Assembly: GCF_024502345.1 (NCBI RefSeq)
Contig: NZ_JALDNN010000001.1
DNA length: 64,000 nt
Reading direction: 5' to 3' (one strand)
DNA from: Escherichia coli
GTDB lineage: Bacteria; Pseudomonadota; Gammaproteobacteria; Enterobacterales; Enterobacteriaceae
Below, piece after piece: positions 1 through 26,418 of the stretch. The notes beneath the pieces are model-generated. The model saw nothing but the letters and a program-made list of their open reading frames with translations, had not been told where the DNA came from and did not search any database. Position 1 is the first letter of the stretch. Every line of letters begins with the position of its first letter. The position numbers and the translations under genes are program-made.

Positions 1-74
1 ATCTTTCCCCGGTGACAAAGTGCTAATTGGTCTGTAATGTTCAATGTGTGGCAGGCAAGCCGCCGGTGACTTAG

Positions 75-1270
75 GGAAGGTGCGAACAAGTTCCTGATAT
101 GAGATCATCATATTCATCCGGAGCGCATCCCAGAGGGACATCATGAGCCATCAACTCACCTTCGCCGATAGTGAATTCAGCACTAAGCGCCGTCAGACCC
201 GAAAAGAGATTTTCCTCTCCCGCATGGAGCAGATTCTGCCATGGCAGAATATGACCGCTGTCATCGAGCCGTTTTATCCCAAGGCGGGCAATGGCCGACG
301 GCCCTATCCGCTGGAGACCATGCTGCGTATTCACTGCATGCAGCATTGGTACAACCTGAGCGACGGTGCCATGGAAGATGCCCTGTACGAAATCGCCTCC
401 ATGCGCCTGTTTGCCCGATTATCCCTGGATAGCGCCCTGCCGGATCGCACCACCATCATGAATTTCCGCCACCTGCTCGAGCAGCATCAACTGGCCCGTC
501 AATTGTTCAAGACCATCAATCGCTGGCTGGCCGAAGCAGGCGTCATGATGACCCAAGGCACTTTGGTGGATGCCACCATCATTGAGGCACCCAGCTCTAC
601 CAAGAACAAAGAGCAGCAACGCGATCCGGAGATGCATCAGACCAAGAAAGGCAATCAGTGGCACTTTGGCATGAAGGCCCACATTGGTGTCGATGCCAAG
701 AGTGGCCTGACCCACAGCCTGGTCACCACCGCGGCCAACGAGCATGACCTCAATCAGCTGGGTAATCTGCTTCATGGAGAGGAGCAATTTGTCTCAGCCG
801 ATGCCGGCTACCAAGGAGCGCCACAGCGCGAGGAGCTGGCCGAGGTGGATGTGGACTGGCTGATCGCCGAGCGTCCCGGCAGGGTAAAAACCTTGAAGCA
901 GCATCCGCGCAAGAACAAAACGGCCATCAACATCGAATACATGAAAGCCAGCATCCGTGCCAGGGTGGAGCACCCGTTTCGCATCATCAAGCGGCAGTTC
1001 GGCTTCGTGAAAGCCAGATACAAGGGGCTGCTGAAAAACGATAACCAACTGGCGATGTTATTCACCCTGGCCAACCTGTTTCGGGTGGACCAAATGATAC
1101 GTCAGTGGGAGAGATCTCAGTAAAAACCGGAAATAACGCCAGAAATGGTGGAAAAAATAGCCTAAATAGGCTGATTCGATGTGTTTGCGGGAAAAAAATC
1201 GGCCCAGATCCGCGAAATTTTAATCAGCGAGTCAGCTTGGGAAGAAATGACCTGCTTATTCGCACCTTCC
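75..1270 (+). mobile_element. IS5-like insertion sequence (IS5 family), about 1196 bp
   Basis: Terminal inverted repeat GGAAGGTGCGAACAAG at 75-90 and its reverse complement ending at 1270; one internal transposase ORF; size fits IS5. Flanking tetranucleotides TTAG (71-74) and TTAA (1271-1274) differ by one base. Confidence 0.9.
143..1123 (+). CDS. insH: IS5-family DDE transposase (InsH-like, 326 aa)
   Basis: Full-length ORF inside the IS5-like element; protein closely resembles E. coli IS5 InsH as I recall it, with scattered substitutions (variant copy). Confidence 0.92.
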
Positions 1271-1439
1271 TTAATATAAAGACACAAGCAGAGACATTTT
1301 TGGCACGATATAAAAACGCTAAGTTAAAAAATCACTATGACGTGTTGGGTATCAAATGTTCACTGGCATAAACCTCTGTTTCTGATGTAAAACAGATTTT
1401 CTGAGGAGGCGTAAAACCTCCTCGTACTGCGAAATTGAT

Positions 1440-23164: not shown

Positions 23165-23177
23165 TGCGGATCACTCC

Positions 23178-25361
23178 CTAAGCGCGTTTGATTTCAACCA
23201 GGTTGGTATGTTGCGGGTTCCCTTTCGCCAGCGGCGACGGCAGGTGGCTGGTCAATGTGTTAATACATCCACCCACGTCCACACCGTTGCTGTCCAGTCG
23301 GGTCCACGCGCCTTGCGGCATTGCCACCACGCCCGGCAGGATGCGCTGTGTCACCTTGCAGGGGATCTCCACCACACCGCGATCGTTGAATACATGGACC
23401 ATATCGCCTGATTTCAACTGACGCACGCTGGCGTCTATCGGGTTGATCCAGACTTCATCCGGTACCGCTTCATGCAGCATCAGCACACTGGCATATGTTG
23501 AGTGCGTGTGACCTTTGGTGTGAAAACCGCTCATCTGTAGCGGATACTTTGCTGTCAGACTCTTGTTCAGATGGGACTCTGTCACTATACAAAATTCAGG
23601 AACAGCCGGAATGCGATCTCCTTCCGGTAGTGTCCAGGCTTTAGCCAGTTCCGCCAGAGTGTGCGAGTAAATCTCAATCTTCCCGGAAGGTGTCGTCAGT
23701 GGACTGGCAACCGGATCATGGCGGAAATCAGCAAGGATAATACTGTCCTCATCACGAGTACCTTGCTGATCGATAACCCCCATATTCATTGCAACTTCCC
23801 ATTCAGGCAGATATGATCGCTTCTCTTTAACTTGTCCGTAATGCTTCGCCATCCACTCTGCCTGAGTACGCCCCTCAGTAAAACGCTCTCTTACCCCAAG
23901 ATGCCCCGCAATATCTGCACAGATATCATAGGTACTGCGTACTTCCCACATCGGTGTGATCGTTTTTTGCATTGCAATCATGTAATGGTGAGAACCGGCT
24001 GCATAGGAACTGTCCACCAGATCCTCGGCTTCTAAGTAGCTAGTTTCTGGAAGAAGGATATCGGCAAAGCGGGCACTGGCAGTCATATGATTATCAATAA
24101 CCACGATAGTTTCGCACAGGCTGTCATCTTCAAGTATTTTGCGTGTACGATTGATATTTCCATGTTGATTCAGAAGTGCATTCCCGGCCTGGTTGAAGAA
24201 CAGTTTAATACCGGTTTTCAGTTTATCCGCGCCTTTAACCCCCATAGTGGTGGCTGTCATTTTTTCCGGACTTTGAATCGCATCTGTCCACAGATAGCAG
24301 GGGATTGACACCTTAACGGGATTTTCACCAATCGGCAGAGCAGGAACACCATAAGGTGTTCCGTATGTCCAGTTCCCATTGTTGGTTCCTGGCAATCCAA
24401 AATGACCCGTCAGGGCAGGAAGTATCTGAACCGCTCTGGAAGTCTGTTCACCATTTGCATGACGCTGTGGCCCCCATCCCTGGGCAATGAAACAGGCCCG
24501 AGCTTCGGCCATTTCACGTGCCAACTGGCGAATACGAATAGCCGGGATGCCACAGATATCTGCCGCCCATTCAGGTGTTTTTTCGACGCCGTCATCACCG
24601 TTACCCAGAACATAGTCTTTATAACTGGCATTTGGTTTCGCCGTTTCCGGAAGGGTGCTACGATCATAACCGACACAATAAGTATTGACTCGTTCTTCGT
24701 CGATCAGATTTTCTTTTATCAACGTGTGTGCAATAGCTGCTACCAGTGCAGCATCGGTTGTAGGGCGAATTGGTAACCATTCAGCATGTTCTGTAACAAC
24801 AGAGTCTGTATAGCGCGGATCGATGATAATCACCCGGGCGCCTGATATTTCCAGCGCACGGCGCAGTTCTTCAACTTGCCCACCACCGGACATCCGAGTC
24901 TCAGATAAATTCAGACCAAAAAAAACCACAAGATCAGAATGCGCAATCTGGCTAAAATGACTGGCAAACTGTACTCCTGTAGCACCATACGTGTAAGATG
25001 TGGCGGTAAAGTTTTGAGCGTTTGAGTAATTATTGTAATACTGCAGAAAACCGCCATTCAGGTTCAATAACCTTTTCCATGCGGGTGTTCCTTGGTTATG
25101 ATAATACGCGCCAGATTGATAATTAAAATAGATTGCTTCATTTCCATATTTTTCAGAAACGCGCTTTAATTCAGCGGCAATAAAGGCTGTGGCCTCATCC
25201 CATGAAATACGTTTAAATTTCCCTTCTCCGCGTTTACCAACACGTTTCATCGGATATTTAATCCGGTCAGGGCTGTAAACTCGCCAGCGGCTGGAACGAC
25301 CTCGCAGACAGGGACGGATTTGGTGTTCACCGAATACCGAATCATCCTTAGCATCTTCCGG
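23178..25361 (-). pseudogene. DmsA-like molybdopterin oxidoreductase catalytic subunit, 5'-truncated by IS903 copy 2
   Basis: Frame stays open to the IS903 boundary (PEDAKDDSVFGEHQIRPCLRGRSSRWRVYSPDRIKYPMKRVG) and matches DmsA from about residue 85; the Tat signal and N-terminal Cys-cluster region are missing. Confidence 0.88.
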
Positions 25362-26418
25362 GGCTTTGTTGAATAAATCGAACTTTTGCTGAGTTGAAGG
25401 ATCAGATCACGTATCTTCCCGACAACGCAGACCGTTCCGTGGCAAAGCAAAAGTTCAAAATCACCAACTGGCCCACCTACAATAAAGCCCTCATCAACCG
25501 TGGCTCCATAACTTTCTGGCTGGATGATGAAGCTATTCAGGCCTGGTATGAGTCAGCAACACCTTCTTCACGAGGCAGACCTCAGCGCTATTCTGACCTT
25601 GCCATCACGACTGTGCTGGTCATTAAACGCGTATTCAGGCTGACCCTGCGCGCTGCGCAGGGCTTTATTGATTCCATTTTTTCTCTGATGAACGTTCCGC
25701 TACGCTGCCCGGATTACAGCTGTGTCAGCAGGCGGGCAAAGTCGGTTAATGTCAGTTTCAAAACGCCCACCCGGGGTGAAATCGCACACCTGGTAATTGA
25801 TTCCACCGGGCTGAAGGTCTTCGGTGAAGGCGAGTGGAAAGTCAAAAAGCATGGCCAGGAACGCCGCCGTATCTGGCGTAAGCTGCATCTCGCCGTTGAC
25901 AGTAAAACACATGAAATCATCTGCGCTGACCTGTCGCTGAACAACGTTACGGACTCAGAGGCCTTCCCCGGGTTAATCCGGCAAACCCACCGGAAAATCA
26001 GGTCAGCCGCCGCCGATGGCGCTTACGATACCCGGCTATGTCACGATGAACTGCGGCGTAAGAAAATCAGCGCGCTTATCCCTCCCCGAAAAGGTGCGGG
26101 TTACTGGCCCGGTGAATATGCAGACCGTAACCGTGCAGTGGCTAATCAGCGAATGACCGGGAGTAATGCGCGGTGGAAATGGACAACAGATTACAACCGT
26201 CGCTCGATAGCGGAAACGGCGATGTACCGGGTAAAACAGCTGTTCGGGGGTTCACTGACACTGCGTGACTACGATGGTCAGGTTGCAGAGGCTATGGCCC
26301 TGGTACGAGCGCTGAACAAAATGACGAAAGCAGGTATGCCTGAAAGCGTGCGTATTGCCTGAAAACACAACCCGCTACGGGGGAGACTTACCCGAAATCT
26401 GATTTATTCAACAAAGCC
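25362..26418 (+). mobile_element. IS903-like element, copy 2 (1057 bp), without target duplication
   Basis: IRs GGCTTTGTTGAATAAATCG at 25362- and inverted ending 26418; flanks ATCTTCCGG and CCGGTTGAA are not a direct repeat. Confidence 0.93.
25394..26362 (+). CDS. IS903 transposase (intact; likely 307 aa from the GTG at 25439)
   Basis: Matches IS903/IS102-type transposase as recalled (KQKFKITNWPTYNKALINRGS...MPESVRIA); the ORF track extends it upstream to a TTG. Confidence 0.92.
   Translation: MKDQITYLPDNADRSVAKQKFKITNWPTYNKALINRGSITFWLDDEAIQAWYESATPSSRGRPQRYSDLAITTVLVIKRVFRLTLRAAQGFIDSIFSLMNVPLRCPDYSCVSRRAKSVNVSFKTPTRGEIAHLVIDSTGLKVFGEGEWKVKKHGQERRRIWRKLHLAVDSKTHEIICADLSLNNVTDSEAFPGLIRQTHRKIRSAAADGAYDTRLCHDELRRKKISALIPPRKGAGYWPGEYADRNRAVANQRMTGSNARWKWTTDYNRRSIAETAMYRVKQLFGGSLTLRDYDGQVAEAMALVRALNKMTKAGMPESVRIA

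Follow-up and report, generated by a model that had tools for sequence, protein, structure and literature searches.

Layout of the block beside yddB

The window analysed here, a stretch of 64,000 nucleotides of Escherichia coli (contig NZ_JALDNN010000001.1, assembly GCF_024502345.1), opens with a block of accessory DNA at positions 1-26418 that runs into a truncated copy of the chromosomal gene yddB. The block holds insertion sequences (IS) of several families, a Tn3-family transposon and metabolic genes, among them a putative isothiocyanate hydrolase, a cysteine-S-conjugate lyase and a Dms-type reductase operon, and its make-up, site and probable history are described below. We mapped it from a listing of its open reading frames (ORFs), by repeat finding and by direct reading of the junctions. 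Contig LLYC01000056.1 of assembly GCA_001484085.1 (L009) is the un-interrupted reference, and H1 denotes the island on the closed chromosome NZ_LR536431.1. From left to right, in positions 1-28326, the features are as follows (IR, inverted repeat; MBL, metallo-β-lactamase; aa, amino acids):

1-74, no strand: plasmid-type DNA, part of a match of 1-2303 to plasmid pCAV2018-177
75-1270, plus: ISKpn26 (IS5-like), transposase 143-1123 intact; named from the RefSeq annotation of identical copies
1440-1940, minus: non-heme ferritin-like protein (FtnB type), intact; NF011597 at 209.9 bits against a cut-off of 154, Pfam Ferritin
2215-3810, minus: IS26, interrupted by IS1; 14-bp IRs at 2215-2228 and 3797-3810
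2304-3071, plus: IS1, 768 bp, with 8-bp duplication GCATTTCG
3811-~4914, plus: IS3-family element, cut at its 5′ end; the H1 match begins at 3811, within the complete IS3 gene of H1
4915-6316, minus: degenerate Tn3-type IR (IR#1), split by IS1111-family element A; uninterrupted in L009
4948-6310, minus: IS1111-family element A, transposase 5205-6227; Pfam DEDD_Tnp_IS110 and Transposase_20
6351-6382 and 7746-7751, minus: left 38-bp IR of the Tn3-family transposon, split by IS1111-family element B
6383-7745, minus: IS1111-family element B, IS5708-like, transposase 6640-7662; named from the RefSeq annotation of H1
7745-8088, minus: 342-bp 3′ relic of a second Tn3-family tnpA, 81% identical to 15435-15757; supplies the left IR
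8268-9044, minus: SaxA-family MBL-fold hydrolase, putative isothiocyanate hydrolase, intact; matches PDB 6BRM
9115-9896 and 11232-11419, minus: GlxA/FtrA-type (DJ-1/PfpI plus AraC) regulator, split; NF006902, an intact 317-aa gene in L009
9897-11231, plus: IS2-like IS3-family element, complete; orfA 9961-10356, orfB 10314-11195, 16-bp direct repeat AACACCGATAAGTCAT
11439-11843, minus: SnoaL-like ‘ester cyclase’, intact; Pfam SnoaL at 87 bits
12036-12611, minus: Tn3-family tnpR, resolvase
12771-15755, plus: Tn3-family tnpA, intact, 994 aa; PF01526 and PF13700
15751-15788: right 38-bp IR of the Tn3-family transposon
15877-16092, plus: IS3-type integrase-core fragment, from the RefSeq annotation of H1, mapped by alignment
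16104-16565, minus: Lrp/AsnC regulator
16774-18081, plus: HAAAP/STP-type transporter
18113-19318, plus: PatB cysteine-S-conjugate beta-lyase; TIGR04350, matches 7QUG
19508-20565, minus: IS903 copy 1, simple insertion with 9-bp duplication CCTCGTTTC
20599-21135, minus: napF-like ferredoxin
21132-21728, minus: dmsD
21772-22545, minus: dmsC
22538-23164, minus: dmsB
23178-25361, minus: dmsA, codons 1-86 and promoter gone; TIGR02166 at 984 bits
25362-26418, plus: IS903 copy 2, intact; joins dmsA′ to yddB′
26419-28326, plus: yddB without its first 465 nt (155 codons), by alignment to strain FDAARGOS_943; followed by pqqL, gadB and gadC of the core chromosome

The mobile elements that an earlier note on this DNA had recognized (IS26, an IS5-like element, IS903, a Tn3-family transposon and IR-targeting IS110-type elements) are all present, but IS1 inside IS26 had been missed, and the IS3-family material, described as fragments only, includes one complete IS2-like copy. 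Several elements are inactivated, as had been noticed: the IS26 transposase is truncated and substituted, that of IS903 copy 1 is frameshifted and IS3-family sequences are left as fragments. After removal of IS1 and one copy of its duplication the reconstructed IS26 is 820 bp long, and it lacks the 8-bp target duplication; its transposase carries H176Y and R206C relative to a plasmid copy, and the last ~8 codons of tnp26 were removed by IS1. The left end and the orfA start of the IS3-family fragment at 3811-~4914 were removed by IS26. In IS903 copy 1 an extra A at 20310 shifts the transposase frame, while copy 2 has no target duplication and its flanks differ (ATCTTCCGG / CCGGTTGAA). ISKpn26 is flanked by TTAG and TTAA. 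The IS2-like element is 1335 bp long and has identical copies on many plasmids; the 16-bp repeat that flanks it (window 9881-11247) is present once in the uninterrupted regulator gene, and two other independent copies (L015 and L017) are flanked by repeats of 17 bp and 15-16 bp. Target duplications of IS3-family elements are normally 3-5 bp.

The transposon itself has a DDE transposase (PF01526 and PF13700), a serine resolvase and 38-bp IRs that are 87% complementary. The 5-bp target duplication was not found at its ends, where the flanks are AATTA and AGGGA; the transposon is not at its original insertion site, or has been rearranged. The IS1111-family elements A and B, each 1363 bp long and 80% identical to each other, both lie between nt 32 and 33 of a Tn3-type 38-bp IR, in the same orientation and without duplication; the two interrupted IRs stand in tandem. 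They have the DEDD transposase (PF01548 and PF02371) and the subterminal IRs of that family (AAGGGCTTCCCC / GGGGAAGTCCCTT, 3 and 6 nt from the ends), and their insertion is precise relative to L009. Because both IRs are broken, the transposon is probably immobile in spite of its intact tnpA.

Each IS1111-family element also has a non-coding region of 257 nt on the 3′ side of the transposase gene (6383-6639 in B, 4948-5204 in A). A guide RNA, the seekRNA, has been demonstrated for elements of IS1111 architecture (PMC11187229). At the same position of the non-coding region stand ATATCCTAC in element B and TATTGTAC in element A, each identical over 8-9 nt to the flank of its own target, so that the difference between the two segments mirrors the difference between the two target IRs; a second segment, (C)TTAACG, matches the other target flank. 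The common position and the matching differences are suggestive of such a guide. The length of the match speaks against this, since 11% of shuffles reach 9 nt and length alone is not significant. An Rfam scan of window 1-28000 gave no match.

Chromosomal site and probable history

The core gene order of E. coli in this part of the chromosome is ydeS-ydeR-ydeQ-ydeP-safA-ydeO-ydeN-ydeM-yddA-yddB-pqqL-gadB-gadC. The relatives L025 and L027 (CP058796.1) carry Tn3-Lrp-transporter-PatB-napF-dmsDCBA, followed by IS elements and by ydeS, ydeR, ydeQ and ydeP. H1 has the same order and continues through an alt-like cluster (TetR, CMD, Trx, EamA, DsbA, Gor, OsmC) to relE/HTH-ISKpn26, which abuts a truncated gadC. 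In L025, L027 and H1 the island occupies a single locus and points the same way, and the IS-mediated bites taken from the core differ between the genomes. Window 3811-25361 is collinear with these chromosomal islands and with that of H3, and on its right IS903 copy 2 stands at yddB codon 155 with pqqL, gadB and gadC beyond, the neighbourhood that had been named before. In FDAARGOS_943, the strain with the closest backbone, yddB is intact and no island separates gadC from ydeS, although the ydeT-hipA-lsrK stretch of that strain is disrupted by IS elements. The comparison with closed genomes that had been proposed thus revealed a recurrent yde-gad site; the left junction lies outside the window.

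At the left end, window 1-2303 is 99.8% identical to pCAV2018-177 (L006 12929-15231), a Klebsiella IncF (IncFIB) plasmid, and on Klebsiella plasmids a relE/parE-HTH toxin-antitoxin pair (HTH, helix-turn-helix) lies just left of this segment. Because the plasmid match continues leftward into this pair, the island extends beyond base 1, in line with the earlier statement that its left boundary is outside the window. The modules of the window are found on plasmids beside sul2/aph, tet(A), dfrA15-intI1 and sil/pco, which bears out the remark that this IS combination is typical of multiresistance regions. The description of the block as plasmid-like fits the IS set and the left 2.3 kb, but not 3811-25361, which is part of a chromosomal island.

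Further out, H1 has to the left of its island a mosaic of >90 kb with a Tn7-like element, a heat-resistance locus and a second ferritin-IS26-IS1 module; the stretch 2632000-2678000 of NZ_LR536431.1 (L121) holds the heat-resistance genes clpK, hsp20-GI, yfdX1/2 and hdeD-GI, the Tn7-like element, Dps, a CDF transporter and an efflux operon. This stress-tolerance mosaic may have a counterpart in the present island, in the part to the left of base 1. To the right of the block, window 26419-64000 is ~98.9% identical to most complete E. coli genomes and 99.5-99.6% identical to FDAARGOS_943, which is rich in IS1, IS2 and pseudogenes; the low GC content at 57-59 kb belongs to the yddL/leucine-rich-repeat gene region, which FDAARGOS_943 also has.

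The junction between block and chromosome is best explained, we infer, by a deletion associated with IS903 that reaches from dmsA codon 86 to yddB codon 155. The deletion is supported by the fact that IS903 copy 2 lacks the target duplication that copy 1 has. It could have arisen as an adjacent deletion or by recombination of two IS903 copies in direct orientation; in L009 an IS903 oriented like copy 2 is found 308 bp upstream of dmsA. A contig of a separate short-read assembly, GCA_050022275.1 (L014), ends 73 bases inside IS903 at the same yddB base. In an exact look-up the 927-aa form of PqqL led to one contig and the 931-aa form to none. IS903 copies near yddB in H26-H40 were considered as the same junction and rejected, because they are inserted elsewhere and arose independently. 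On the deletion model the strain has lost ydeS, ydeR, ydeQ, ydeP, safA, ydeO, ydeN, ydeM and yddA, and with ydeO, safA and ydeP the loss covers EvgA-dependent acid-resistance regulators, so that the phenotype of the strain could change.

Taken together, we read the block, with a probability of about three in four, as the surviving part of a chromosomal mosaic island at ydeS...gadC that has been trimmed by recent IS activity. The core of this island has three parts, a Tn3-family transposon with a SaxA-type hydrolase, its AraC/DJ-1-type regulator and a SnoaL-like protein, a Morganellaceae-derived Lrp/transporter/PatB module for cysteine S-conjugates, and an accessory operon for a DmsABC-type S-/N-oxide reductase. 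IS26 has fused a Klebsiella-plasmid fragment (toxin-antitoxin pair, ISKpn26 and ferritin gene) to the left side of the core. IS1111-family elements, probably guided by their own RNA, have entered both Tn3-type IRs, by which the transposon should be immobilised; the IS2-like element has broken the regulator gene and IS1 has broken IS26, and one IS903 has landed between patB and napF. The second IS903 would be associated with the deletion of the dmsA 5′ end, the right part of the island, ydeS through yddA and the first 155 codons of yddB. The map, the insertion points, the homologies and the common site and orientation in relatives are observed directly; the order of events, the reach of the deletion and the roles of the enzymes are inferred. 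Anatomically the block is nothing unusual: a mosaic island, shaped by IS elements, that sits at a recurrent site of the chromosome.

Three other accounts of the block compete with this one. The earlier note had seen an old, decaying insertion, and interrupted or truncated elements are indeed many, the same locus in several lineages suggests some age, and dmsA has been broken independently in other genomes. But L009, which has neither the two IS1111 elements nor the IS2-like element nor IS903 copy 1, is otherwise 100% identical to the window over 912+73+2152+8276 bases to the left of IS903 copy 1, and along the dms genes 4795 of 4796 bases agree. The IS copies match plasmid copies at 99-100% identity; of the non-IS cargo genes only dmsA and the regulator are damaged; and tnpA, frameshifted in H1, is whole in the window. 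The damage to the block consists of IS insertion and deletion with almost no point-mutational decay, and because of these near-zero point differences from its un-interrupted relative we consider great age unlikely. It is also improbable, in our view, that the entire block derives from a plasmid, or a large piece of one, that was recently integrated by IS26/IS903 cointegration. The near-identity of 1-2303 to Klebsiella IncF plasmids would be explained in this way, as would an IS26 without duplication, which is what cointegrate formation or deletion leaves, and the SaxA transposon does occur at 24 plasmid places. Against it, the collinearity of 3811-25361 is with the chromosomal islands of H1, H3, L025 and L027, the Lrp-PatB allele of the window is found in one of the 5426 complete E. 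coli genomes and there on the chromosome only, and the dms operons of plasmids reach only 77-89% identity.

Finally, a plasmid segment could have been mis-joined to the chromosome across IS903 during assembly, which the earlier note had itself named as a way in which it might be wrong. The IS903 at the junction spans 1057 bp, lacks a duplication and has a near-identical copy close by, and every module is found on plasmids too; yet the same chromosomal neighbourhood and orientation recur in other genomes, three of them closed (NZ_LR536431.1, CP058796.1 and NZ_CP062853.1), no replication, partition or transfer gene is present in the window, and the separate assembly has IS903 at the identical yddB base, and we regard a mis-join as very improbable. 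Some points do weigh against the trimmed chromosomal island. The near-identical IS903 copy lies 4.8 kb away in inverted orientation, so that an assembly error at the junction is possible on the sequence alone, and the separate assembly with the identical junction possibly comes from the same isolate. Moreover, the deletion model is built on other strains, not necessarily ancestors, and with the left boundary beyond the window neither the full length of the island nor the point at which it truly entered this strain's chromosome is in view.

Cargo and plant organosulfur compounds

The block had been credited with metabolic cargo, namely a ferritin-like gene, an MBL-hydrolase/GlxA-regulator/SnoaL module and an Lrp/transporter/PatB module, together with a decayed reductase operon, and this description stands. 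The MBL hydrolase aligns to SaxA (PDB 6BRM) with E 2.4e-78 and 48% identity over 256 aa, residues 1-255 on 2-257, and the metal ligands (HxHxDH plus distal) H66, H68, D70, H71, H126, D162 and H219 are invariant in a five-sequence alignment including 6BRM and 3RPC. It is probably an isothiocyanate hydrolase, which would detoxify plant mustard-oil toxins. SaxA converts isothiocyanates to amines and carbonyl sulfide; it belongs to a family spread widely through the Enterobacterales, in which all five enterobacterial phylogenetic clusters retain activity and the gene often lies on mobile elements (PMC7036374), and a fungal homologue with 20% identity is still active (PMC7303113). We surveyed 80 SaxA-like loci, one genome per species: a DJ-1/AraC-type regulator is adjacent in 62 of them and a SnoaL-like gene in 7, so that hydrolase and regulator form a conserved unit. 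The SaxA/regulator segment is present in 78/5426 complete E. coli genomes, at 56 chromosomal and 24 plasmid places. A point against the assigned substrate is that SaxA homologues occur in many bacteria without plant contact, and isothiocyanates are maybe not the sole substrate.

Resistance was screened for with NCBIfam, which contains NCBI's resistance models, on the ten main cargo proteins, and defence with PADLOC on all 102 ORFs of >=60 aa, of which 40 were additionally scanned singly. No resistance family was found by NCBIfam for the ten cargo proteins, and the MBL protein matched generic hydrolase models only, below cut-off. AMRFinderPlus as given in PLSDB marks sil and pco on L006 and leaves the adjoining ferritin-like gene unmarked, and it reports no resistance gene under the transposon match on H47. 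PADLOC matched three families among the 102 ORFs. The ‘DrmC’ match (E 2.8e-23) is a false positive, falling on residues 184-262 of ORF 3262-4050, the helix-turn-helix of IS3 OrfA; this model (PDLC02590, 88 positions) gives false defence calls wherever such an IS3 OrfA (window 3811-4050) occurs. The CARF-HTH match (E 8e-4) is a trivial helix-turn-helix hit on the Lrp regulator, with nothing else for the ten cargo proteins. The SIR2 match (E 1.4e-5) is in an ORF of <105 aa of unlocated position, and no gene is annotated there in related RefSeq records. A functional SIR2 protein is far longer than 105 aa. The earlier view that the block has no resistance or defence genes holds for antibiotics and phages, but not for plant toxins, given the homologue of the SaxA-family isothiocyanate hydrolase. 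Screens for antibiotic resistance and phage defence call such regions ‘empty’ and miss genes like this one; tolerance genes for natural antimicrobials ride the same vehicles as antibiotic-resistance genes.

PatB scores 360.5 bits against the cut-off of 340 of TIGR04350, a curated C-S lyase family, and matches FnaPatB1 (7QUG) with E 1.7e-150, the N-terminal loop region being ungapped. FnaPatB1 cleaves hydrophobic cysteine S-conjugates (PMC11203769). The closest named relatives of PatB are in Proteus (77% aa identity) and Providencia (about 68%). The same Lrp/transporter/PatB trio stands amid chromosomal housekeeping genes in Proteus terrae, at 77% aa identity, and such a native place fits the GC content of 36-43% of the trio. 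A DmsABC-type reductase has a catalytic A subunit with a Tat signal and an N-terminal Fe-S domain, together with B, C and a chaperone. In the dms operon the B, C and D genes and the NapF-like gene are present, and the A subunit lacks its N-terminal 86 codons, codons 87-813 remaining. Since these codons and the promoter are gone, the operon of the window is predicted to be unable to make a functional exported enzyme, and the reductase operon is decayed in this sense. The dmsA product falls into an enterobacterial paralogue group of its own, 85% identical to an Intestinirhabdus protein and 80% to a very common Salmonella protein, and its scores stay far under the equivalog cut-offs for DmsA and YnfE. 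A large assembly collection has the exact DmsB protein in 857 blocks. Elsewhere in the island family, dmsA is frameshifted or 5′-truncated independently in L034, L035, L036, L037 and L038, each time with a residual ORF of 690 aa.

A more far-reaching idea is that the cargo forms one functional system for dietary organosulfur compounds of Brassica and Allium, to which intact relatives add an alt-like thiosulfinate-tolerance cluster; we hold this to be doubtful. The roles that it would assign are equally tentative: SaxA would hydrolyse isothiocyanates, PatB would cleave cysteine conjugates and the Dms-type enzyme would reduce sulfoxides or thiosulfinates. The idea draws on H1 and L029, where dmsA runs into TetR-CMD-Trx-EamA-DsbA-Gor-OsmC, like the published alt/PfAR-1 sets (PMC7119367; Pantoea preprint), and on Providencia, where a SaxA-like gene and regulator lie beside PatB-transporter-Lrp and TetR/OsmC/CMD/SDR/OYE/DsbA at 47-68% aa identity, a diverged pairing of independent origin. 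Moreover, diverged versions of the SaxA module and of the dms operon occur together on P1-like plasmids, and E. coli reduces glucoraphanin and S-methylcysteine sulfoxide (PMC8137612). Yet among the 80 SaxA loci a DmsA neighbour was found in none, a PatB-like one in two and an alt-like set in one (Achromobacter), the modules differ in GC content and are parted by IS remnants, and the alt-like cluster is absent from window 1-26418. A general linkage of SaxA, PatB, Dms and alt was considered and is unsupported by the survey of these species-representative loci. In the Achromobacter locus (Achromobacter kerstersii, L086), the sole one of its kind among the 80, the SaxA-like gene and regulator stand beside a TetR/Trx/DsbA/OsmC/OYE/PatB-like set, an independent pairing of tolerance genes of the isothiocyanate type with those of the thiosulfinate type.

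Co-selection of the modules in one niche is plausible. That E. coli has a mobile island at a recurrent site devoted to reactive plant organosulfur compounds of gut or food, with the window as a half-deleted copy, remains a speculative suggestion which we would not favour; such an island would combine an isothiocyanate hydrolase, a lyase for cysteine conjugates and the importer belonging to it, a sulfoxide/thiosulfinate reductase and an alt-like cluster against thiol stress. If it were true, diet phytochemicals rather than antibiotics would select this architecture that looks like a resistance region.

Comparison with known systems

Alt-like clusters are already known from both E. coli and Klebsiella (PMC12306174). 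Like the alt/TTG clusters of Pantoea, Enterobacter, Pseudomonas and Burkholderia, the relatives H1, L029 and L034 have TetR, CMD/AhpD, Trx, EamA, DsbA, Gor and OsmC beside dmsA, and a C-S lyase belongs to the published alt set. The window, in contrast, has none of the TetR/Gor/DsbA/Trx/CMD/OsmC set; the side on which the relatives carry it is the side that was deleted.

With SaxA of Pectobacterium and Pseudomonas syringae the hydrolase module shares full-length homology, the MBL ligands, the adjacent AraC-type regulator and carriage on mobile elements. It differs in that its protein is 48% identical to the solved enzyme and its host is E. coli, not a plant pathogen, in that the regulator is broken by an IS, and in that the activity of the hydrolase is a predicted one.

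The block as a whole resembles the IS26/IS903-bounded mosaics of enterobacterial plasmids and islands in its IS26 without duplication, in IS-mediated deletions of neighbouring DNA, in insertions nested within one another and in modules that multiresistance plasmids also carry, but it is chromosomal, lies at a recurrent site and is without an antibiotic-resistance gene.

For the interrupted transposon ends the nearest parallel is the Tn21 subgroup, in whose 38-bp IRs elements of the IS4321/IS5075 type were reportedly described by Partridge and Hall in 2003. In the transposon of the window, too, the 38-bp IR ends in ...CTAAG and overlaps the stop codon of tnpA. The inserted elements are likewise of IS1111 type, with subterminal IRs, one orientation and no duplication, and interrupt the IR (PMC11187229). 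Unlike the Tn21-subgroup transposons, however, that of the window derives its left end from a tnpA 3′ relic, has no flanking 5-bp duplication and carries SaxA, regulator and SnoaL genes in the place of mer or an integron; and, compared with IS4321/IS5075, its two IS elements are 1363 bp long, IS5708-like and mutually just 80% identical.

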